A DNA stretch of 61,950 nucleotides, counting the filler. It is 3 parts of 3 records of this genome, joined end to end, with 100 filler letters (N's around TTAATTAATTAA, not from the genome) between each part and the next. Parts side by side here need not be neighbours in the genome. Positions count along the whole stretch, not along the records: positions 18,115 to 49,938 come from DRR723986_1339; 2 more parts are not named here. One strand, given 5' to 3'. The notes under the pieces are model-generated. The model did not search any database and was not told where the DNA came from. It was given only the letters and a program-made list of their open reading frames with translations. Position 1 is the first letter of the stretch. The number at the start of each line of letters is the position of its first letter. Position numbers and translations under genes: made by a program. Shown in pieces: positions 17,381 to 28,011 of this stretch.

Positions 17381-17575
17381 TCGTTTTCTGTCAGGTTTGA
17401 AGTTGTTCCGCCATAGAACATCCTGCCTTCTTTTGAAAGTAGATTAGACGTTCCTGTGTGGTCGAAAAGGTTTCCTGGCCGGCTTTTGAACCCGTCCGGT
17501 CCAAAGGTTTCGTGGACGGCTACAGCAGCACCGCAAAGGCAATTTCCCGCTGCCGTCGGCGATCCTGTCGAGCGC

Positions 17576-17616
17576 AAAAGAAAAGGGCGGGGAGCCGAAG
17601 CTCACCCGCCCTCTTT
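17576..17616 (-). terminator. Terminator-like hairpin after the MCP gene
   Basis: Plus strand AAAAGAAAAGGGCGGGGAGC-CGAA-GCTCACCCGCCCTCTTT; U-rich tail on the minus strand. Confidence 0.75.
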
Positions 17617-17632
17617 GGTCAGATGTGTGCGA

Positions 17633-18014
17633 TCAAGCCGCGGCAACCTCGGAGAGGAACTGCTCGACTTCACGCTTCAGTTCGTGGGTCTTCTGGGTCA
17701 GTTCTCCGGAAGCCGACAGCACCATGTCCGCAGACGAGGAGGTCTGGTCAACGGCCTGCGAAAGCTGCGACATGGAAGAGGACACGGCACCGGTTCCTTC
17801 CGCCGCGCGCTGCACGTTCTGCGAAATCTCCGCGGTGGCGGCGCCCTGCTGTTCGACGGCCGATGCGATGGCCGTGGTATAGGTGTTCACCTCGGTCATG
17901 GTCTCCGCGATCTCGCCAATGGCAACGACGGATTCCTTGGTCGCGTTCTGGATCTCGGTGATCTGGCTGGAGATCTCCTCCGTTGCCTTGGAGGTCTGGG
18001 TGGCCAGCTCCTTC
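17633..18014 (-). CDS. Methyl-accepting chemotaxis protein, C-terminal fragment
   Basis: KELATQTSKATEEISSQI...IASAVEQQGAATAEISQNV signalling-domain motifs; cut by the contig end. Confidence 0.9.
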
Positions 18015-18114
18015 NNNNNNNNNNNNNNNNNNNNNNNNNNNNNNNNNNNNNNNNNNNNTTAATTAATTAANNNNNNNNNNNNNNNNNNNNNNNNNNNNNN
18101 NNNNNNNNNNNNNN
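18015..18114. other. Artificial contig-joining spacer
   Basis: N44-TTAATTAATTAA-N44 (stops in all six frames); flanking genes are truncated. Confidence 0.98.
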
Positions 18115-20173
18115 CGTCCCCATGGGCTTTGGCGGCCCCCACGCCGCGTTCTTCGCGACCCGCGACGACTACAAGCGCTCCGCACCGGGCCGCATCATCG
18201 GGGTCAGTATCGACCGCCTCGGCAACCAGGCGCTGCGCATGGCAATGCAGACCCGGGAACAGCACATTCGCCGCGAGAAGGCGACCAGCAATATTTGCAC
18301 GGCGCAGGCGCTGCTGGCGATCATGGCCGCGTTCTATGCCATGTACCACGGCCCTGTCGGCCTGCGCCGGATTGCCGAGCGCACTCATCACCTGACCGGC
18401 CTGCTCGCCAGGGGCCTCTCGGCTGCCGGCATGGCGCCGGACAACGCCAGCTGGTTCGACACCCTGACCCTGACCGTTGGCGAACGCCAGGGCGAGATTG
18501 TCGAGCGTGCCCTGGCCCAAGGCATCAACCTGCGCCTGATCGGCAGCGACCGACTCGGTATCGCGCTCGACGAAACCACCAGCGCAGCCGATGTACAGCT
18601 ACTGCTTGGCGTCATCACCGGCAAGCCCGCTCCGGAGCTGACGGAGCCGGCTGACGGGCTGCCGCCGGCGCTACAGCGCGAGGTGGACTACCTGCAGCAC
18701 CCGCTGTTCAACGAGTATCACTCGGAGACCGAGCTGCTGCGTTATATGCGCCGCCTGGAGGACAAGGACATTGCCCTGAACCGGGCGATGATTCCGCTGG
18801 GCAGCTGCACCATGAAACTCAATGCGACAACCGAGATGCTGCCAGTCACCTGGCCCGAGTTCGGCGCCCTCCACCCCTTCGCCCCGGCGGAGCAGACCGT
18901 GGGCTATCGCCAGCTACTGGATGAGCTGGAGCATATGCTGCTGGAGTGCACCGGCTACGATGCCATTTCCATGCAGCCCAACGCCGGCTCCCAGGGTGAG
19001 TACGCCGGACTGCTGGCCATCAAGCGCTATCACGAGAGTCGTAGCGACGCGCAGCGCAATATCTGCCTGATCCCCTCCTCCGCCCACGGCACCAATCCTG
19101 CGAGTGCGGCCCTGGCCGGCATGAAAGTCGTCATCGTGGAGTGTGACTCGCGCGGCAACGTGGACATGGCGGACCTGAAAATGAAGGCCGAGCGCCACAC
19201 CAACGACCTGGCGGCCATCATGGTCACCTACCCGTCCACCCACGGCGTCTTTGAGGAGTCCATCGTCGAGCTCTGCGAGGTAGTCCACCAGCACGGCGGG
19301 CAAGTCTATGTCGACGGTGCAAACCTCAATGCGCTGGTGGGTATCGCCGCCCCCGGCAAGTTTGGCGCCGACGTGTCACACCTGAACCTGCACAAAACAT
19401 TCTGCATTCCCCACGGTGGCGGTGGCCCCGGCATGGGCCCCATCGGCGTGGGTGCACACCTGCAGCCCTTCCTGCCAACCAACCCGGTGGCGCCGGTACC
19501 AGGCCTTGCCCCGGACAACGACGTGGTGTCATCGACCCCGTACGGCAGTGCGTCCATCCTGCCGATCTCCTGGGCCTACATCGCCCTCATGGGCGGCGAG
19601 GGACTGACCGAGGCGTCCAAGGTTGCCATTCTCAGCGCCAACTACATCGCCCACCGGCTGCGGGACCACTACCCCATCCTGTATACCGGCACCACCGGCA
19701 ATGTTGCCCACGAGTGCATCATCGATATTCGCCCGATCAAGGAGGCCAGCGGTGTTTCCGAGGAAGACGTGGCCAAGCGGCTGATCGACTTCGGCTTCCA
19801 TGCGCCCACCATGTCCTTCCCGGTGGCGGGAACCCTGATGGTCGAACCCACCGAGTCCGAGTCCCTCGCGGAACTGGACCGGTTCTGCGATGCCCTGATC
19901 ACCATCCGCGACGAGATCCGCGCGGTCGAGGCGGGCCAACTGGACCCGGCGGACAACCCGCTGGCCAACGCCCCGCACACCCTGGCCGACGTTGTCGCCA
20001 GCGACTGGGCTCACCCCTATAGCCGCGAGCAGGCGGCCTACCCGGTTGATTCCCTGCGGACCAGCAAGTACTGGGCCCCGGTGAACCGGGTCGACAACGT
20101 GTATGGGGATCGCAACCTGTTCTGCGCCTGCCCGGCGATCGACAGCTGGCGTGAACTGGAGGAAGAAGCCTGA
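18115..20173 (+). CDS. gcvP: Glycine dehydrogenase (decarboxylating), P protein, 5'-truncated
   Basis: [71 protein letters not shown]. Confidence 0.98.
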
Positions 20174-20253: not shown

Positions 20254-21552
20254 ATGCCCAACAGAACACTGACCTACGCACTGACCCTGCTGGTGCTGCT
20301 CTGCGCCAGGCCAAGCCTGGCCAGCAGCGGCGCGACGATAGCGGCCATCTATATCGATGACCAACCCCAGCAGAGCGTCACCGGCGTAACGGTGTCGGTG
20401 GGCAAGGAACGTATGAGTGGCCCGCTGAACCTGCAGCAGCCCATACCCTCCGGAGCACGCATCCAGACACCCCCGCGGGTCACCCTGGACCTGCTCACCC
20501 AGAACCAGAACAGCCTGCGGGTGGCGCCGAATTCCGATGTCCGCATTGGGGTAAGCGCCCAGGGCGAGAACCACTCGGTCAGCAGCGGCAGCCTGTTCGC
20601 CTGGGTGAAGACAAAGCTGGACTTCTTCAACATCAGCGACAGTAACGGCCGCTTCCAGGGGGCCGCAAAATCAACCGCCTATGGCGCTACTGTCGGTCGC
20701 GGCGGCATCAGTTTCACTACCAGCGAAGGCGTCATCCGGGTCAACCAGCAGGTGCCGGTCAGCGTCGCCGGTACCGCGGTCAAGACCAATGGGCGCAGCC
20801 CGCTGACAGTGACCCGCTCTTCCAGCCTGGCGGCTGACCAGGGCTCGCAATCCTTCGACTTCGAGGCCTTCCAGTCACAACCGCAGGACTTTGCCAGCTT
20901 CGATGACGCCACCGACAGCCTGCAACAGTGGATTGCCCAGGCAGAGGCCGCCCACGACTGGGAGGCGGCAGTCGACCTGTATTCCACCCTGGGAGGGATG
21001 TATCTCGACGAGGGCGAGGCAGACGAGGCGGTGAGCTACCTCAACCGGGCCCTGGAGATCAATTACACCAATGGTTCCGGCCTGCTTGACCCGAGTTTCT
21101 CGGAAGATCACACCTTGCTGGGCTATGCCTTCCTGGAGCTGGAGTGGCCCATCCTGGCGCTGCTCAATTTCCGCCGGGCAGAAGAAATCCTGCTGGAAAT
21201 CGATCCCTATAACCCTTTGCTTGCCGATTCATGGATCGACCAGGCCGAAGCACTGCAGCAACTGGGCGACGAGCAGAGCTCGGTTGAACTCGCGCTCCAG
21301 GCAGCGGAACTGCTGGGTTACCAGTTAGACGAGGACATGGCACTGCTGGACGAGTGGATGGAGTCGGATGATCTGGAAATGCAGTACCTGGCCATCGACT
21401 ATGCCTGGGAAGTCAGCGATCGCCTGATGAGTATGGGCTGGGCGCTCCAGTTTGCCCAGCAGCCCGCGGAAGCGGATGAGTTATTCGCTACCGCCGGGGA
21501 ACTGGAGGATTTCATCAGCGACTGGGAAGCAGAAGTCGATGCCTATCGCTAA
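20254..21552 (+). CDS. Exported protein with a FecR-like beta domain and a very acidic TPR-like C-terminus
   Basis: Signal peptide; FecR-pattern segment GARIQT...SLRVAPNSDVRI...AAKSTAYGATV...TTSEGVIRV; TPR-like helices (LYSTLGGMYLDEGEADEAVSYLNRALEI). Confidence 0.7.
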   Translation: MPNRTLTYALTLLVLLCARPSLASSGATIAAIYIDDQPQQSVTGVTVSVGKERMSGPLNLQQPIPSGARIQTPPRVTLDLLTQNQNSLRVAPNSDVRIGVSAQGENHSVSSGSLFAWVKTKLDFFNISDSNGRFQGAAKSTAYGATVGRGGISFTTSEGVIRVNQQVPVSVAGTAVKTNGRSPLTVTRSSSLAADQGSQSFDFEAFQSQPQDFASFDDATDSLQQWIAQAEAAHDWEAAVDLYSTLGGMYLDEGEADEAVSYLNRALEINYTNGSGLLDPSFSEDHTLLGYAFLELEWPILALLNFRRAEEILLEIDPYNPLLADSWIDQAEALQQLGDEQSSVELALQAAELLGYQLDEDMALLDEWMESDDLEMQYLAIDYAWEVSDRLMSMGWALQFAQQPAEADELFATAGELEDFISDWEAEVDAYR

Positions 21553-23173
21553 ACGACTGGCGGCGTATACCGCCATCTTCCTGGCCCTGCTGCTGCTCGT
21601 CGGGAGCCTGCTGGGCGCCGCCTGGCGCCCGCTTGATTACATCGTGTTCAAGGCGCTGGCGATCGGTGACTCCCCGCAGCTTGAAGACGACATCCGGATC
21701 ATTGACCTGCCCTACTACAAGGCCGGCTCCGGCTCCTTCGACCTGCCTGACTTCCGCGCCCGCACCGTTGACCTGCTGCAGCAGATCGGCGAGCTGAGCG
21801 CCAACTATGAGCGGCCACGCGCGGTAATTCTTGACCTCTACTACGGGAGCGACCAACGCCTTGTGCCGGAGCTATTGGCCGCCATCGCGGGGCTGCAGGA
21901 GAAAAAAATCCGGGTCTACGGCGTGTTCGACACCATGGGCCTGGCGGGCACCTCCTTTGAACAGCGCCGGGCGGATCACGCCATGGCAATCTACGAGCGC
22001 CTCGACGGCGGTCTGCTGCATACCCGGTTCGACCAGAAGCTGGGAGCCATCACCTACCGTTCCCATCTCGAGATACACTACGACCAGGAAGATATGCAGG
22101 CCAGGGTTATGGCGCTGCCTCTGCGCGTTGCCATGGATCTGAACCAGATCGAGGAACCTGACCCAGTGCGGGAGTATGTGCTGCCCCACGGTGACCAGGC
22201 CGATGTAACGAGCAAGACACTCCAGTTCACTCACCCGCAGGGCAGTACCAGCGGCGGCCGTTTCCTGCAGCAGGGGACCGAGCTGGCCGCGCCTGACATC
22301 CACGACAAGTTGCTGATCGTCGCCAGCTTCGAGGGCGACCGCGTGGTCCAGGGTCGACCCGGCCCCGAGCACCTTGCCTGGGCGCTGGATGACCAGCGCA
22401 ACGGCAACCGCAATGCGCGGATACCGATGAACCAGCCCCTGATTATCGTCGGCGTGGTGCTGTTTGTGGCCGCGTGGACCGCGCTGGTTTATGCCGTGCT
22501 GTTCAAATACGCCAAGTCCCTGCAGACCCGGCCTGGCGCACTGGCGTTACTGGCCCTGCTCGCCGGACTTGCTGCCATCGGTGGACTATCGGCCCTGGTG
22601 CTGATGATTGGCCAGGTGCTGCCAGTCGGCCTGGCGCTGTTCGCGGCGGCGCTGGCCGCAGCGGTGGCCTGGCACTTCGCCAATCGGTTCCTGGTGACCG
22701 GCGTGGCGGAAGGTTCCGGCAAGTACGACGTGTTTATCAGTTATTCACGCAAAGACGGCGACTGGGTCTACAACAGCCTGTACAAACCGCTGAGCGAGCT
22801 GCGCAAAGCCGATGGCTCGGCTCTGTCGATCTTCTTCGATCGCAACGAGATCAGCCTGGGGGAGGCTTTTACCTCGAAATATATGTGGGCGATCGTCGAT
22901 AGCCAGCATTTCATACCGGTATTCTCGGAAAACTATTACGGCACGCGTAGCCACGGCCGCAATGAAATGGACCTGGCCTACAAGCGCCATGTCGAAAAGA
23001 GTATCCGAATACTTCCAGTGGCTTTCTCCGATGACAGCGTGCCGGAGATTTACAATGGATTGAATTACCTGAACGTGACCACCGAGACCGAATTTTTCGC
23101 CGCGCTGGCAGCCGAACTGACCGCGCCGGAAGCGTCAGCCAGGGACGATTCGGATTCCGCAGGTAGCGCCTGA
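21539..23173 (+). CDS. CHASE2-like sensor - 3TM - TIR domain membrane receptor
   Basis: N-terminal TM, PLDY..F, IRIIDL, PRAVILDLYY, KLLIVAS, PGPEHLAWAL (CHASE2 pattern); three TMs; then YDVFISYSRKDGDWV...IFFDRNEISLGE...AIVDSQHFIPVFSENY...RNEMDLA...ILPV (TIR); overlaps the upstream gene by 14 nt. Confidence 0.85.
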   Translation: MPIAKRLAAYTAIFLALLLLVGSLLGAAWRPLDYIVFKALAIGDSPQLEDDIRIIDLPYYKAGSGSFDLPDFRARTVDLLQQIGELSANYERPRAVILDLYYGSDQRLVPELLAAIAGLQEKKIRVYGVFDTMGLAGTSFEQRRADHAMAIYERLDGGLLHTRFDQKLGAITYRSHLEIHYDQEDMQARVMALPLRVAMDLNQIEEPDPVREYVLPHGDQADVTSKTLQFTHPQGSTSGGRFLQQGTELAAPDIHDKLLIVASFEGDRVVQGRPGPEHLAWALDDQRNGNRNARIPMNQPLIIVGVVLFVAAWTALVYAVLFKYAKSLQTRPGALALLALLAGLAAIGGLSALVLMIGQVLPVGLALFAAALAAAVAWHFANRFLVTGVAEGSGKYDVFISYSRKDGDWVYNSLYKPLSELRKADGSALSIFFDRNEISLGEAFTSKYMWAIVDSQHFIPVFSENYYGTRSHGRNEMDLAYKRHVEKSIRILPVAFSDDSVPEIYNGLNYLNVTTETEFFAALAAELTAPEASARDDSDSAGSA

Positions 23174-23207: not shown

Positions 23208-23369
23208 TCAGGTCTGGGTACCGGGCGGTCCCGGGCGCTGGGTGCCGGGGGGTCCCGGACGCTGAGTCCCGGGCGGTCCCGGGCGTTGGGTGCCGGGGGG
23301 TCCCGGACGCTGGGTCCCGGGCGGTCCCGGACGTTCTGTACCTTCCTTTTCCTTGTCCTGGTCAGACAT
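23208..23369 (-). CDS. 53-aa tandem-repeat peptide MSDQDKEKEGTE(RPGPPGTQ)5T
   Basis: AGGAG 6 nt before the ATG at 23369; repeat units differ only at third codon positions. Confidence 0.8.
   Translation of the reverse strand: MSDQDKEKEGTERPGPPGTQRPGPPGTQRPGPPGTQRPGPPGTQRPGPPGTQT
23214..23333 (-). repeat. Five tandem 24-nt units encoding RPGPPGTQ
   Basis: Consensus CGY CCG GGA CCS CCC GGB ACY CAR; units alternate between two sub-types (48-nt higher-order period). Confidence 0.95.
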
Positions 23370-23422
23370 GCACATCTCCTTGCGTTTACCTCTGCCTAAA
23401 CCTAGTCGCTGGATGGGGATTG

Positions 23423-25420
23423 TCAATCTGGCACCGTGGCCAGGATCGCATCAAAGCGCGCGGGATCCAGCGCCCGGAGCTTGACCAGGTCAGGATCCTC
23501 GAGCAGGAGCTCCGCCGAGAAGCCCAGCGACCTTGCCTGTGCCAGCGCCACATAGGCCGACTCCGGGTTGGCCAGGGCCCAGTGCACCAGGGCGGCAAAG
23601 TAGTGCGAAGTCGGCGGCGAACTGCCGGTAGCGAGCATGCGCTGGGTATAGGCCAGCGCCTCCGACTCGTGCCCCGAGTACGCGTGGTACAAGCCGAGCA
23701 GGCCCAGCGTTTCCCAGTCGTTGGGGTTACGTGACAGGCGTTGTTCGGCGAGGGAGATGGCTTGGGCATAGTTGGCCAGTTCCTGCTCCCTGTCACCCAG
23801 CGCACGATAGCTCTCGGCGATCCGCCCCCAGACCCGATGATCATCGGCAATGTTGCCGGCGGCGGCCTCATGCATCGCCGCGGCCCGGGCATAGTTGCCC
23901 TGGTAGTAATACAGCAGCCCGAGGTTGGTGTAGCTGATACCGAGGGAGCCGATGCTGTCGGCGCCTGCCTGCTCTATCACCTGCATCCACACCTGCTCCG
24001 CCTCGGCTTCCCGGCCGAGCATGTACAGGGCTGAGCCCTGGCCGATGAGTGCGCTGAGCAGGTCAGGTACCTTCACCAGGACCTCGTCATAGGCAAGCCG
24101 GGCTTTGTCATACTGCGCGGCAGCTATATAGAAATTCGCCAGCACAAGCCGGGTTTCCCAGTTGCTTTCGTCAAGGGCGACCGCACGCTGGAGATAGTCC
24201 TCGGCCTCCTCGTAGCGCCCGGTATCACCATAGGTCTTGCCGATTTCCTGCAAGGTCCGCGGGCGATCAGGGTAGTCGCGGTCGGCGGCGAACAGGTAAT
24301 CCAGTGACTTGGCGTATTCTCCCGCCTCGCGGTAGAGCACGCCCAGGGCGATCTGCACATCCCAGCCCGGTATGCCTGACTCGGACTTCGCCAGCGCCCG
24401 GAGGCAGGCCCGTTCCGCCAGGCTAAATGCCTCAGCTTCCCGGCTGTGGCTGTACTGCGCCAGTTGCGCGTCGCAGATGCCGGCAAAGGCGTCGGCGTAG
24501 TCCGGGTCGATCTCAACCGCTTCGGTAAAAAATGCGACCGCCTCATCAAGAATCGCGTCATTCCACGGCAGGCGCAGCTGGGCGCGGCCCTTCAGGTAGG
24601 CGTTGTAGGCGTCAAAGTTGGTGGTCGATGGACCAAGGGGCAGCGCACCCTCCTCCATGATCATCGGACGAATCGCACGCACGACTGCTCCGGCGATCTG
24701 GTCCTGCAGCGCGAATATGTCCTCCAGGGTGCCGTCATAGGTCTCCGACCAGAGGTGGTAGCCGTTGCTGGTATCGATCAACTGGGCGGTGACCCGCACG
24801 GCATCGCCGGTTTTGCGGACACTGCCCTCCAGCAGGGTCGCTACGCCCAGCGAGCGCCCGATAGCCATCACATCCTCGGTGGTGTCGCGAAAATGAAACG
24901 ACGAGGTTCTGGCGGCGACACGCAGGCCTTCAACCTGGGCCAGCACATTGAGCAGTTCTTCGGAAATACCATCACTGAAATAGGCATTGTCCGGGTCGCT
25001 GCTCATATTGGCGAAGGGCAGCACCGCAATCGACTGCGCCTGCGGATCGTCGACCGCCCAGGGAATCGTGCCGCGCTGCAGGTATAAACGTTCGTAATAG
25101 AGGTAACCAACCATCAGTACCAGGGTGCAGATCAGCACGAACTGCAAGGCATGGGCAGTGGATATCCTCGGCGGCGCGGCTTGTGCTTCCGGTGAGGGAA
25201 TAAGCCCCTCAGACGAGAGGTCAAAAACCCAGGACAGGAGCATGGCCACCGGGAAACCGCCAGCCATAATGTAGAGCATCAGGCGCATGGACCATTCAGG
25301 CAGCCCCATGATAGGCAGCATGATGTCGGCGACCTGAAGCACGGCCCAGGCCGCCGCCGCATAGGCGAAGGCAACCCTGAATACCTTACGGCGCTTCAGT
25401 TCGGCGATAAACGCCTGCAT
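23423..25420 (-). CDS. Membrane-anchored TolB-like(N)/TPR protein
   Basis: ELKRRKVFRVAFAY plus 3 TMs, SIAVLPFANMSSDPDNAYFSDGISEELLN, LEGSVRK, HLWSETYD, then multiple TPRs. Confidence 0.88.
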   Translation of the reverse strand: MQAFIAELKRRKVFRVAFAYAAAAWAVLQVADIMLPIMGLPEWSMRLMLYIMAGGFPVAMLLSWVFDLSSEGLIPSPEAQAAPPRISTAHALQFVLICTLVLMVGYLYYERLYLQRGTIPWAVDDPQAQSIAVLPFANMSSDPDNAYFSDGISEELLNVLAQVEGLRVAARTSSFHFRDTTEDVMAIGRSLGVATLLEGSVRKTGDAVRVTAQLIDTSNGYHLWSETYDGTLEDIFALQDQIAGAVVRAIRPMIMEEGALPLGPSTTNFDAYNAYLKGRAQLRLPWNDAILDEAVAFFTEAVEIDPDYADAFAGICDAQLAQYSHSREAEAFSLAERACLRALAKSESGIPGWDVQIALGVLYREAGEYAKSLDYLFAADRDYPDRPRTLQEIGKTYGDTGRYEEAEDYLQRAVALDESNWETRLVLANFYIAAAQYDKARLAYDEVLVKVPDLLSALIGQGSALYMLGREAEAEQVWMQVIEQAGADSIGSLGISYTNLGLLYYYQGNYARAAAMHEAAAGNIADDHRVWGRIAESYRALGDREQELANYAQAISLAEQRLSRNPNDWETLGLLGLYHAYSGHESEALAYTQRMLATGSSPPTSHYFAALVHWALANPESAYVALAQARSLGFSAELLLEDPDLVKLRALDPARFDAILATVPD

Positions 25421-25520
25421 AGAGATTGGCTCTTGTGCTGAATCCGGCCTGACTATAGCACCTCCCCGATGCAGCCTGAACTGAAATGCGCCTGCGGCAG
25501 GCTTGTTCCATGCGTTGCAA

Positions 25521-25548
25521 TTGCTATTCGGAACGGCTGCTCTATGAT
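25521..25548 (+). promoter_or_regulatory. Putative sigma70 promoter of the caspase operon
   Basis: TTGCTA-N16-TATGAT about 40 nt upstream of ATG 25589. Confidence 0.4.
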
Positions 25549-25588
25549 TAGGGAACACTATTAGCTGAACGGCATTGATACCCGCCCG

Positions 25589-26548
25589 ATGAATAAGCGA
25601 GCACTACTGGTCGGCATCCAGGACTACGATTACGCACCGCAGCTTTTCTGCTGCGCCGAAGACGCCCGGGCAATGGCCGATGTCCTCGGACGCCACGCTG
25701 ACGGCGCGCTCAATTACGAATGCCTGGCCCTGACCAGTGATCAGGGACGAATCACCGAGGCCGAACTGCGCGGCAAGGTACGCGAGCTGTTTGCCGACGT
25801 GGCCGGCGGCGAGGTGATCTTCTACTTTTCGGGGCACGGGGTCATAACCGATACCGGCGGCTACCTGGTAACCCAGGACGGCCAGGTAAATGACCAGGGT
25901 TACCCGATGTCCGAACTGCTGCAGATCGCAAACCGCAGCGGCGTTGGCTCGGTCCTGCTGATTCTCGACTGCTGCCATAGCGGCAGTATCGGTGGTAGCG
26001 GTGCAGACCCTTACCAGAACCAGGTGCTGCTCAGCGAGGGCGTCACCATCCTGGCCGCCTCATCACCGCAACAGGAATCCCGCGAGGGTCTGGAGCACAG
26101 CCTGTTCACTGAACTGGTGCTGGACGCGCTCAATGGTGGCGCCGCTGATATCCGGGGCAATGTGTCCGCGGCCTCTTTGTACGGCTATGTAGAGCAGTCT
26201 CTGGGGGCCTGGCAGCAGCGCCCCATGTACAAGTCCAACGCGCGCAGGCTGAACCCGATCAGACACTGCGAACCGGCGGTACCTGACCAGTTGCTGCGCC
26301 AGCTGCCGACACTGTTCACCTCGCCGCAACTGGCCATTGCGCTCGACCCGGGCTTTGAACACACCGATCCCAGTGCCGAGGCGGAAAAGGTCGCAATGTT
26401 CGACCAGTTCAAGGCCCTGCGCAACGCACGCCTGCTGGAGACGGCCGGCGGCGAAGACCTGTACTACGCTGCCATGCGCGGCGGCTCAGTCAAACTCACA
26501 CCGCTGGGACGATTTTACTGGCAGCTGGTAAAGAACCGGCGGATATAG
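25589..26548 (+). CDS. Caspase-like cysteine protease (peptidase C14) with a C-terminal accessory domain
   Basis: RALLVGI, FYFSGHG (His), ILDCCHSG (Cys), TILAAS, SLFT..LDALNGGAAD; C-tail LDPGFE...YYAAMRGGSVKLTPLGRFYWQLVKNRRI. Confidence 0.93.
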   Translation: MNKRALLVGIQDYDYAPQLFCCAEDARAMADVLGRHADGALNYECLALTSDQGRITEAELRGKVRELFADVAGGEVIFYFSGHGVITDTGGYLVTQDGQVNDQGYPMSELLQIANRSGVGSVLLILDCCHSGSIGGSGADPYQNQVLLSEGVTILAASSPQQESREGLEHSLFTELVLDALNGGAADIRGNVSAASLYGYVEQSLGAWQQRPMYKSNARRLNPIRHCEPAVPDQLLRQLPTLFTSPQLAIALDPGFEHTDPSAEAEKVAMFDQFKALRNARLLETAGGEDLYYAAMRGGSVKLTPLGRFYWQLVKNRRI

Positions 26549-26557
26549 GAGCGTTAC

Positions 26558-27076
26558 ATGTCGGACTCCGATACTTCCAGGGCCGTGCGGCCAGACGAAT
26601 ACGGGGACAGTTACCGGGCGGACTTCCTTACCATGTACCATGAGTACGTGGCGTCTGCCGACCGGATTTCAGAGCGCAGGACCGCCGCCAATACTTTCTT
26701 TGTCAGCGCCAACGCGGCGCTTCTCGGCCTCAACGGCTACTTCCTGCAGAAAGACGGGGAGCCTTCCCTGCTGATCAACGATGCCCTGTGGGTACCCGCA
26801 GTAGCGGCCATCCTCATGTGCTGGATCTGGCGCGGCCTGATTTCATCCTACAAAAGCCTTAACGGCGCCAAGTTCGGGGTCATCCTGGCCATGGAGCGCC
26901 AGCTTCCCGCGGCACCGTATACGGACGAGTGGGCAAACCTGCAGGACAGCCAGCGCAGCAGCAAACACATTCCGCTCAGTGATTCGGAGAAGTACGTGCC
27001 CATGGTCTTCATGATCGTCAACGTGGGTATCTTCACCCTGAGCTTTACCAATTTCATTCTTGGCAAGGTCAGCTAG
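26558..27076 (+). CDS. RipA-like small oligomeric membrane protein (2 core TMs plus a hydrophobic C-tail)
   Basis: Y..YV.SADRISERR..AN.FFVS.N, W...I.SY..LN.AKF.VI..ME.QLP..PY..EW pattern, recalled from Francisella RipA-like proteins; GGAG RBS. Confidence 0.7.
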   Translation: MSDSDTSRAVRPDEYGDSYRADFLTMYHEYVASADRISERRTAANTFFVSANAALLGLNGYFLQKDGEPSLLINDALWVPAVAAILMCWIWRGLISSYKSLNGAKFGVILAMERQLPAAPYTDEWANLQDSQRSSKHIPLSDSEKYVPMVFMIVNVGIFTLSFTNFILGKVS

Positions 27077-27085
27077 GAGATCAGT

Positions 27086-27931
27086 ATGCCCAGGGGCTTA
27101 TCCCTACATATCGGAGTCAACGTCTGCGACCCGGATCACTACGGCGGCTGGTCCGGCCCGCTGGAATGTTGCGAAGCGGATGCGGACGCCATTCACGGCC
27201 TGGCCGTGGAAGCCGGATTCGAACCGACGGTGCTGAAGACGGCACAGGCCACGCGTACTGCCGTGGCCGATGCCATCAGCTCGGCGGCTGCCACCTGTGA
27301 GGCCGGCGACTTCTTGCTGGTGAGCTACGCGGGGCACGGTGGCCAGATTGCCGACGTCGATGGCGATGAGAGCGACCAGATCGACGAGACCTGGTGCCTG
27401 TACGACGGCCAGTTACTCGACGACGAACTGAACGTCCTATGGGCAAAATTCCATGCGGGCGTGCGTATCCTGGTGCTGTCAGACAGTTGTCATAGCGGCT
27501 CGGTAACCAAGAGCGTCGCCAGCCGGCGCGGGGCGATGGGCGCTCGCAACGCCCTGTTCTCCGGGACAGCGCCACAGGCGGCGGGAAAGGCCCGCTTCAT
27601 GCCCCGACAGGCCGCGGCAGCGACCCAGCGCAAGAACCGTGATTTTTACGCCGGGCTGCAGACCTCCCTCCCCAACCCGCGACCGGCGATCAAGGCCAGC
27701 GTCAGGCTGCTCTCGGGCTGCCAGGATAACCAGCTCTCCACCGAACTGGACGGCAACGGGGTCTTTACCCGCAATGTGCTGCGGGTATGGGACAAGGGTA
27801 ACTTCCAGGGCGACTATCGGGAATTTCACCGCGCTGTTATCACCAATATGCACGAAAGCCAGCAACCCAATCACCTGGTGATTGGCGGTGAAAATTCCGA
27901 GTTCGACGCTCAGCGACCGTTTTCCATCTGA
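27086..27931 (+). CDS. Metacaspase-like peptidase C14
   Basis: SYAGHGGQ, DGDESDQIDETWCLYD..LLDDEL, LSDSCHSGS, LLSGCQDNQLS, GVFT, QQPN. Confidence 0.93.
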   Translation: MPRGLSLHIGVNVCDPDHYGGWSGPLECCEADADAIHGLAVEAGFEPTVLKTAQATRTAVADAISSAAATCEAGDFLLVSYAGHGGQIADVDGDESDQIDETWCLYDGQLLDDELNVLWAKFHAGVRILVLSDSCHSGSVTKSVASRRGAMGARNALFSGTAPQAAGKARFMPRQAAAATQRKNRDFYAGLQTSLPNPRPAIKASVRLLSGCQDNQLSTELDGNGVFTRNVLRVWDKGNFQGDYREFHRAVITNMHESQQPNHLVIGGENSEFDAQRPFSI

Positions 27932-27965: not shown

Positions 27966-27991
27966 ATAAAAAAAGGCGCCGTAATGGCGCC
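27966..27991 (-). terminator. Terminator hairpin between convergent operons
   Basis: ATAAAAAAAGGCGCC-GTAAT-GGCGCC; U-tract on the minus strand, ending the SnoaL transcript. Confidence 0.75.
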
Positions 27992-28011
27992 CTGGAGATG
28001 AGAAACCGCTA

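Follow-up and report, generated by a model that had tools for sequence, protein, structure and literature searches.

A TIR-less caspase-8xMP-metacaspase operon, possibly an offshoot of a Thoeris-type module

In type IV Thoeris, as the preprint on that system describes it, a short TIR protein makes N7-cyclic ADP-ribose (N7-cADPR), which activates a caspase-like protease that cuts many proteins after arginine (bioRxiv 10.1101/2024.10.24.620036). This caspase-like effector was named ThsE in a 2025 survey of Thoeris (bioRxiv 10.64898/2025.12.03.692087). The detection rule given for type IV accepts TIR_2 or ThsB and allows up to one gene in between (bioRxiv 10.1101/2024.10.24.620036). Here we analyze a three-gene operon at positions 25589 to 27931 of a 61,950-nucleotide stretch of DNA (the window), which encodes a ThsE-like caspase (caspase 1), a small membrane protein of the Pfam family 8xMP and a second, metacaspase-like protease (caspase 2), and which has no TIR gene. 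It is quite conceivable, although short of an even chance, that an abortive-infection module of the Thoeris type, that is, one with TIR signaling, gave rise to this operon as a TIR-less offshoot.

Three other described groups of proteins are relevant to the operon. In type V Thoeris, the effector ThsF (DUF2270, PF10028) is reported to be a three-helix membrane protein, modeled as a ring with basic pockets (bioRxiv 10.64898/2025.12.03.692087). Protease-effector modules, according to a further preprint, associate EACC1, Pepco, MBL or alpha/beta-hydrolase proteins with trypsin- or caspase-like proteases (bioRxiv 10.1101/2025.11.14.688446). The RipA protein of Francisella is described as a homo-oligomeric protein of the cytoplasmic membrane with two essential cytoplasmic domains, which co-precipitates LpxA (PMC4322802). 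Published descriptions exist of type IV Thoeris, of protease-effector modules and of Thoeris effectors in membranes. A literature search, with the supplements of the Thoeris survey outside its scope, found no description of a TIR-less caspase-8xMP-metacaspase operon. In the papers covered by that search, neither PF24838 nor its family name is mentioned, the family is not treated in connection with defense, and no octameric membrane effector is linked with Thoeris; the survey supplements may list 8xMP.

The operon and its three proteins

The three open reading frames (ORFs) lie head to tail on the plus strand, in the order caspase 1 (25589-26548, 319 aa), 8xMP membrane protein (26558-27076, 172 aa) and caspase 2 (27086-27931, 281 aa); together they span exactly the coordinates of a three-gene operon proposed in an initial annotation of the window. 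The annotation had also described two 9-nt junctions with GGAG overlapping the upstream stop, and both can be read directly in the sequence, at 26546..26557 and 27074..27085 on the plus strand: TAG-GAGCGTTAC-ATG and TAG-GAGATCAGT-ATG, with 9 nt before the next ATG. At each, the first G of GGAG is the last G of the stop codon (TAGGAG), and the GGAG-to-ATG distance of 6 nt is normal Shine-Dalgarno spacing. Judged from its sequence, the triad looks like a co-transcribed unit that combines a small membrane protein of the oligomer type with two caspase-family proteases that differ from each other.

Caspase 1 (25589..26548, plus strand) consists of a C14 domain (residues 3-217) and a conserved C-terminal domain of ~100 aa. 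It matches Pfam Peptidase_C14 (PF00656) with 53.3 bits against a cut-off of 21.4, and its catalytic motifs SGHG (H83) and DCCHSG (C129) are intact, H83 and C129 being invariant in an alignment of 64 sequences. Its many full-length relatives number 1686 proteins at E≤0.001, the best 120 of which are all at least 50% identical to it, and 63 records of a plasmid collection contain a homolog. Five of these plasmid loci were opened (Paenarthrobacter, Agrobacterium pTi, Rhizobium, E. coli and Thiolapillus), and in all five a short TIR gene (123-138 aa) lies directly upstream of the caspase. Aligned against six TIR-adjacent caspases, caspase 1 matches end to end, up to the last residue, with 36-52% identity and 98-100% coverage. 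C129 is the invariant cysteine across these proteins as well, and the C-terminal residues W208, Q210, R211, P212, R225, D253 and E257 are invariant across the TIR-linked and triad caspases. A homolog with 41% identity encoded by a Rhodoferax metagenome-assembled genome (MAG; locus L043) is followed by a protein matching PADLOC ThsB (E 1.8e-82). The arrangement of its full-length kin, directly preceded by a short TIR gene in 5/5 plasmid loci, is the type IV Thoeris layout, and caspase 1 appears to be of the type IV Thoeris effector kind by homology to TIR-adjacent caspases rather than to experimentally tested proteins.

Caspase 2 (27086..27931, plus strand) also matches PF00656 (66.2 bits, cut-off 21.4) and has intact catalytic motifs, AGHG (H84) and DSCHSG (C135), with both residues invariant among 64 aligned sequences. 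The outer genes therefore do encode C14 proteases, as the initial annotation held, and its view that the two differ in type is borne out by BLASTP, in which they share 32% identity across 77 residues only, in the His/Cys region (E 0.002). The metacaspase acidic motif that it attributed to the second protease is the stretch DVDGDESDQIDETW, residues 90-103, which is largely invariant in the 64 homologs (D90, E95, D97, D100, E101, T102 and W103 without exception). Caspase 2 matches the protein GSU0716 of Geobacter sulfurreducens (PDB 3BIJ) over its full length (E 7.8e-82, residues 1-281 against 1-277), and metacaspases from yeast, plants and trypanosomes align with its catalytic core (E 1e-9 to 1e-12). 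Pfam and PDB searches revealed no sensor or extra domain in it.

The middle protein (26558..27076, plus strand, 172 aa) matches the Pfam octameric membrane protein family 8xMP (PF24838; E 6.3e-32, 110.7 bits, cut-off 30), as do 65 of 65 aligned relatives. Look-alike clusters in the ESM Atlas, with 90-93% PF24838 members, are automatically named 'RipA family octameric membrane protein', in agreement with the RipA-like label of the initial annotation. That annotation had further placed the protein with small two-transmembrane oligomers; a 172-aa membrane protein it is, but the predicted topology has three helices rather than two. The protein is predicted to be N-in, with helices crossing the membrane at ~44-64, 78-98 and 147-168 and cytoplasmic parts at 1-43 and 99-146, and hydropathy and charge counts fit this three-pass topology with two cytoplasmic parts. 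An AlphaFold2 monomer built with the 65-row alignment (predicted local distance difference test score, pLDDT, 90; predicted template modeling score 0.80) has long helices at 19-64, 78-113 and 147-171; the single-sequence fold reached a pLDDT of 50. Prediction of a complex of caspase 1, caspase 2 and 8xMP, run without use of alignments, scored 0.00 against a mark of 0.34, a value that counts neither for nor against their interaction.

Searches of the PDB by sequence, profile and fold found no solved structure related to the 8xMP protein (best Foldseek E 0.24, none at E≤0.001), and the octameric Csx28 pore showed no likeness to it in these searches. No PADLOC or NCBIfam model matches the window protein, nor the 8 and 7 further 8xMP proteins compared with the two collections, respectively, and 20 longer representatives carry no informative fused domain. 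A library clustered at 50% contains 4393 representatives of this large family at E≤0.001, and the basic cytoplasmic residues R40, R41 and K105 are invariant throughout it.

Genomic neighborhoods and the second triad

A single scan of species-representative genomes gave at least 441 relatives of the 8xMP protein, and the counts that follow refer to the best 80 loci. Neighboring ORFs were called longest-first and scanned with Pfam, which yielded 75 upstream and 76 downstream genes, as some loci end at the match. Upstream of 8xMP, small same-strand ThsB_TIR proteins account for 20/75 genes, TIR_2 or DUF4062 for a further 3/75, FGE-sulfatase for 3/75 and a caspase for 1/75. The downstream genes include TIR_2 (7/76), DUF4062 (3/76), FGE-sulfatase (6/76) and a caspase (1/76), the caspases on both sides belonging to one locus, L001. 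DUF4062 is a TIR-like NADase according to a 2026 preprint, and carriers of TIR or DUF4062 make up 23 of the 75 upstream and 10 of the 76 downstream genes, so placed that 29/80 loci have one directly next to 8xMP. If FGE-sulfatase and caspase are included, the figure is 36/80; the other 44 loci have varied or unannotated neighbors. The 8xMP family normally partners small ThsB-like TIRs. On plasmids, a TIR gene lies directly upstream of 8xMP in 3/3 loci opened, beside restriction, PIN, HEPN or transposase genes. Four loci (L004, L013, L021, L034) have 8xMP between two different TIR-type genes, ThsB_TIR upstream and TIR_2 or DUF4062 downstream, a layout that parallels the two-caspase sandwich of the window.

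By phmmer, a caspase is present in only two of the 80 loci, L001 and L043, and it flanks 8xMP in L001 alone; the L043 caspase stands two genes away, within its own TIR-caspase pair. The initial annotation had looked to a linkage of the homologs with proteases or defense genes. For defense the expectation holds, since relatives of both caspase 1 and 8xMP are found in defense-type neighborhoods (TIR or DUF4062 next to 29/80 8xMPs), but for proteases it hardly does, with 1/80 flanked. In five Nocardia loci (L044, L046, L050, L056, L073), the next gene after 8xMP, in the same orientation, encodes a conserved 476-477-aa protein without a Pfam match, which in L044 has no PADLOC match either.

Sequence comparison indicates that the TIRs beside 8xMP and the TIRs beside caspases are close kin. 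The caspase-side TIR of Thiolapillus (L087) matches the 8xMP-side TIRs of L043 (E 5e-48) and L021 (E 1e-47), and the 8xMP-side TIR of Paenarthrobacter (TIR-B of L083) matches the caspase-side TIR of Rhizobium (L085) at E 4e-23. The Thoeris survey takes the different neighbors of one TIR cluster as alternative effectors (bioRxiv 10.64898/2025.12.03.692087). Both kinds of pair can occur in a single locus. At L043 5534-8301, a ThsB_TIR-8xMP pair is convergent, tail to tail, with a ThsE-like caspase and a 266-aa ThsB. At L083 5039-8999, on the Paenarthrobacter plasmid pYJN5-2, one strand carries both a TIR-caspase and a TIR-8xMP pair, ~1.7 kb separates their near ends, and integrase genes and an IS21 element flank them. 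On the Agrobacterium and Rhizobium plasmids, a gene for a soluble protein of ~150 aa follows the TIR-caspase pair (L084 4505-4954, L085 4469-4948), with a second TIR gene after it in Rhizobium; these ~150-aa proteins were considered as 8xMP candidates and are not 8xMP.

The complete triad recurs in L001, from a Pseudomonadales MAG, with identities of 66% for caspase 1, 51% for 8xMP and 59% for caspase 2. Its junction lengths differ from those of the window, with gaps of ~42 and ~65 nt according to the ORF calls and the start codons as called. L001 also shares a divergent TPR gene upstream (L001 390-2486, 49% identity over 700 aa by tblastn). Downstream of the triad on the opposite strand (L001 5530-10101) are genes for a PG_binding_1 protein, an nSTAND1 NTPase (828 aa) and a SIR2_2-TIR_2 protein, the last of which runs off the end of the locus. 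Beyond this second triad, the top-120 homolog lists of caspase 1 and caspase 2 have in common 14 longest contigs of identical size. Of the longest-contig sizes in the 8xMP list, which has 14 hits, 9904 and 2279723 recur for both caspases, 4147 for caspase 1 and 3195 for caspase 2. Such matching of contig sizes is indirect evidence that triad homologs are co-located and is silent on gene order.

Phylogenetic trees, both unrooted and drawn with midpoint rooting only, separate the triad proteins from the TIR-linked homologs sampled. A quick tree by maximum likelihood was built for 70 relatives of caspase 1; in it, the caspases of both triads and all 11 contig-sharing homologs fall in one 42-row clade (Shimodaira-Hasegawa-like approximate likelihood ratio test, SH-aLRT, 97), which contains 0/6 TIR-adjacent caspases; 42 of the 64 close homologs sampled belong to it. 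The 8xMP tree has 65 rows, its alignment having left out 15/80 loci, mostly ORF calls with a long N-terminal extension. The window and L001 proteins form an 8-row clade with six close metagenomic homologs (SH-aLRT 98), and this caspase-linked clade, which keeps R40, R41 and K105, is nested in a 21-row clade (SH-aLRT 96) that holds 8 small-TIR-adjacent 8xMPs.

A TIR-less derivative of Thoeris and its alternatives

If the operon derives from a Thoeris-type module by loss of the linked TIR, caspase 1 would be a sensor-effector, kept inactive in the absence of a small signal derived from ADP-ribose, which its conserved C-terminal domain would bind, and the activated protease would cleave proteins after arginine. 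The family evidence points to small-molecule gating first. The 8xMP protein would be an inner-membrane homo-oligomer, here most likely a membrane-damaging co-effector, and caspase 2 would be a second, domain-less protease alongside caspase 1, acting as a parallel or downstream executioner. The signal maker would lie outside the operon and act in trans. Within the window, the only candidate for that part is a membrane protein of 573 aa that has several hydrophobic segments, carries a TIR_2 domain C-terminally (residues 427-552, Pfam E 3.2e-14) and is encoded on the plus strand at 21452..23173, 2.4 kb upstream of the operon. It is the only TIR among the 56 window ORFs in the Pfam scan, and it has a weak match to PADLOC PDC-S66 (E 7e-8). 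The role of the operon would be anti-phage.

Several observations weigh against this derivation. A phmmer search with 12 TIR queries found no ThsB-type TIR in the operon or the window (0 at E<0.1), although the reach of this search is limited, as the same queries missed the window's own TIR_2 domain. The window TIR_2 protein is not conserved beside the second triad, where there is instead the unrelated SIR2_2-TIR_2 gene, 3.7 kb away and next to the nSTAND1 gene; the nearby TIRs may reflect only the clustering of defense genes. A system that relies on a signal maker encoded elsewhere would not be robust to gene transfer. For the rest, the window is ordinary chromosomal DNA: its G+C is even, and the ORFs scanned include no mobile-element genes. 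The comparison of caspase 1 covers TIR-adjacent kin rather than the Pseudomonas and E. coli 328 proteins that have been tested, and the triad loci inspected at the DNA level are two, the window and L001. Lastly, the caspase-linked 8xMP clade has H22D, E32A and Y137H in 8/8 members at sites that are near-invariant elsewhere (outside the clade, E32 is kept in 55/57 rows and Y137 in 53/57), and counting M33S and T141S there are five such cytoplasmic sites altered in 7-8/8 members. A basic residue at position 20 is found in 8/8 caspase-linked proteins versus 19/57 outside, and one at position 92 in 7/8 versus 1/57. The replacements at H22, E32 and Y137 hint that the input of these proteins is no longer the same as that of their TIR-linked relatives.

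The surroundings of the operon in the window are as follows. Caspase 1 is the first gene after the divergent TPR gene (23423..25558, minus strand), which encodes a membrane protein of up to 711 aa matching Pfam TPR families, and the TIR_2 protein is encoded on the far side of it. This TPR gene is the only flanking gene common to the window triad and L001; it may be part of the system or only reflect kinship of the two genomes. A secreted-looking TPR protein of 432 aa overlaps the 573-aa TIR_2 protein by ~100 nt (20254-23173), and the two genes are probably a unit of their own. The space that separates the TIR gene from the TPR gene convergent with it holds a 24/48-nt tandem repeat at 23214-23335 (5 copies of the 24-nt unit or 2.5 of the 48-nt unit, 84-93% matches), which encodes PGTQRPG-type repeats in a 72-aa minus-strand ORF (23208-23426) without a Pfam match. 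A promoter-like site, TTGCTA-16-TATGAT, precedes the first gene of the operon (25521..25548, plus strand), which is weak evidence alone, with 1 site in the consensus scan versus 0.8 expected from shuffles. The G+C-rich hairpin at 27973..27993, between the operon and a convergent SnoaL-like gene, has its T-run on the minus strand and so is a clear terminator for the SnoaL-like gene only. Farther away, a glycine dehydrogenase ORF (18122-20173) starts at position 263 of the Pfam GDC-P profile, and no Pfam family matches the ORF just upstream of it (17456-18070); gcvP seems to lack its N-terminal third or to have it in another frame.

There is real room for the two ideas of the initial annotation, cleavage of the membrane protein and a two-step cascade, because cytoplasmic 8xMP residues are altered and the pairing of caspase 1 with caspase 2 is wide. 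It is unlikely, but deserves attention, that 8xMP is a protease-gated membrane effector, in which one or both caspases cut a cytoplasmic part and turn an inert ring into a leaky one, so that cleavage replaces TIR-nucleotide control in this clade. The tight coupling of the three genes would suit such a mechanism, and caspase-like proteases are reported to release small pore-formers such as EACC1, Pepco and gasdermin (bioRxiv 10.1101/2025.11.14.688446). The replacement of near-invariant cytoplasmic residues and the basic residues at positions 20 and 92 are consistent with it, and, speculatively, R20-A21 would fit the cleavage of type IV Thoeris caspases after arginine with small residues around the site. 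However, the caspase-linked 8xMPs are of the same length as the TIR-linked ones, with no extra inhibitory segment, and they retain the family-wide basic residues R40, R41 and K105. Besides the window, flanking caspases are found in only 1/80 genomic loci, and 8xMP is outside the ten protease-associated effector families that the preprint lists (bioRxiv 10.1101/2025.11.14.688446).

A two-tier cascade is also doubtful, although it too has something in its favor. Here a signal-sensing caspase 1 would activate the domain-less caspase 2, by cleavage or hetero-oligomerization, and the membrane protein would anchor or concentrate both. Homologs of the two caspases share more same-size contigs with each other (the 14 noted above) than with 8xMP, but this matching says nothing of gene order. 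The lack of any sensor or extra domain in caspase 2 would suit an executioner, and the type IV Thoeris preprint, where it discusses its findings, cites a bacterial protease cascade in which SAVED-CHAT processes PCaspase. The layout of two paralogous enzymes around 8xMP recurs in the four loci with two different TIR proteins. Nevertheless, the published type IV caspase is already a promiscuous executioner, which makes a second tier unneeded, and the zymogen nature of caspase 2 is without support. Cleavage of 8xMP and the two-tier cascade, each of rather low probability, are compatible with one another and with derivation from a TIR-signaling module.

The two ideas could be taken together as a self-contained, TIR-free death module, in which a membrane ring of a new all-helical family has shifted from nucleotide to caspase control under a ThsE-like initiator that senses a signal or stress and a bare executioner metacaspase. 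We give this only a slim chance. If true, caspases of a prokaryote would form a two-tier cascade that ends in a membrane pore of a new kind, and the module would show, as a natural intermediate, how a signaling-gated effector turns into a protease-gated one.

A contact-based sensor role for 8xMP is less likely, and we regard it as improbable that the 8xMP ring itself senses disturbance of the membrane or envelope and gathers the flanking enzymes, mostly TIRs and here caspases, with no diffusible signal. This would account for the constancy of 8xMP while its partners vary (small TIRs, TIR_2, DUF4062, FGE-sulfatase proteins and caspases), these being mostly bare enzyme domains, and it would resemble the reported co-precipitation of the soluble enzyme LpxA by Francisella RipA, a homo-oligomeric protein of the cytoplasmic membrane with two essential cytoplasmic domains (PMC4322802). 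Small ThsB TIRs, however, are known to sense phage themselves and to make signals, and caspase 1 retains the C-terminal domain thought to bind one. Equally improbable is a non-defense role as a housekeeping module for the envelope or for proteolysis, which this bacterial lineage would have inherited together with the divergent TPR gene: the metabolic flanking genes, even G+C, lack of mobile-element genes seen, the TPR gene common to L001 and the reported non-defense role of Francisella RipA would allow it, but the neighborhoods of the caspase 1 and 8xMP families are dominated by TIR and defense-type genes, often on plasmids with restriction, PIN, HEPN and transposase genes, and L001 adjoins nSTAND1 and SIR2-TIR genes.

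Type IV Thoeris is the one case in which TIR signaling is known to switch on a bacterial caspase. The operon reveals a sizeable sister group of that caspase, which, in the two members inspected as DNA, has dropped the TIR gene and acquired a second caspase and a membrane protein. It also ties 8xMP ('RipA'), a family of which little is understood, to TIR-type immune operons, which is a testable lead on its function. Should the three proteins act on one another, the operon would be a compact model for bacterial caspase cascades and membrane killing.

Comparison with described systems

GSU0716 resembles caspase 2 over its whole length, but it was deposited as an uncharacterized protein and so gives no functional lead, and the plasmid homologs of caspase 2, in the three loci viewed, show other, varied and uninformative contexts and fusions. 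Francisella RipA resembles the middle protein in its family label, which comes from Pfam 8xMP and the Atlas cluster names and not from direct sequence comparison, and in a predicted topology with two cytoplasmic domains. It differs in being tied, in the reports on it, to LpxA, lipid A synthesis and growth in host cells and not to proteases or TIRs (PMC4322802, PMC12444477). A bacterial gasdermin-protease system can be set aside: PF24838 is the only family matched by the middle protein, which is built of helices throughout, three of them in the membrane.

The operon is like the protease-effector modules in having a caspase-like protease beside a small non-enzymatic protein that is a candidate membrane damager. 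Both caspases fall below the cut-off of 140 bits for NCBIfam NF047832 ('caspase, EACC1-associated type'), caspase 1 with 103.3 and caspase 2 with 31.4 bits, and there is no EACC1-like neighbor. Moreover, 8xMP is an all-helical integral membrane protein, in contrast to the beta-rich soluble EACC1 or the Pepco barrel, the window proteases have no fused sensor domain, and 8xMP is absent from the families listed for these modules.

There is a likeness to ThsF in that the 8xMP family comprises small three-helix membrane proteins found beside ThsB-type TIRs, predicted to be homo-oligomeric and with the invariant basic residues R40, R41 and K105. The two are nevertheless of different Pfam families, which rules out 8xMP as the type V effector family DUF2270: PF10028 matches 0/65 8xMP rows at E up to 5. 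The window 8xMP also differs in being partnered by caspases and not by a TIR.

Type IV Thoeris differs from the window operon in several respects. The short TIR gene that belongs in the same operon is absent, 8xMP and a second caspase are present besides caspase 1, and caspase 1 is in a subclade separate from the sampled TIR-adjacent caspases. The window might formally be picked up by the type IV detection rule through its TIR_2 protein. What the two have in common is caspase 1 itself, homologous over its full length to caspases that follow a short TIR gene and with the C-terminal domain of that family present.

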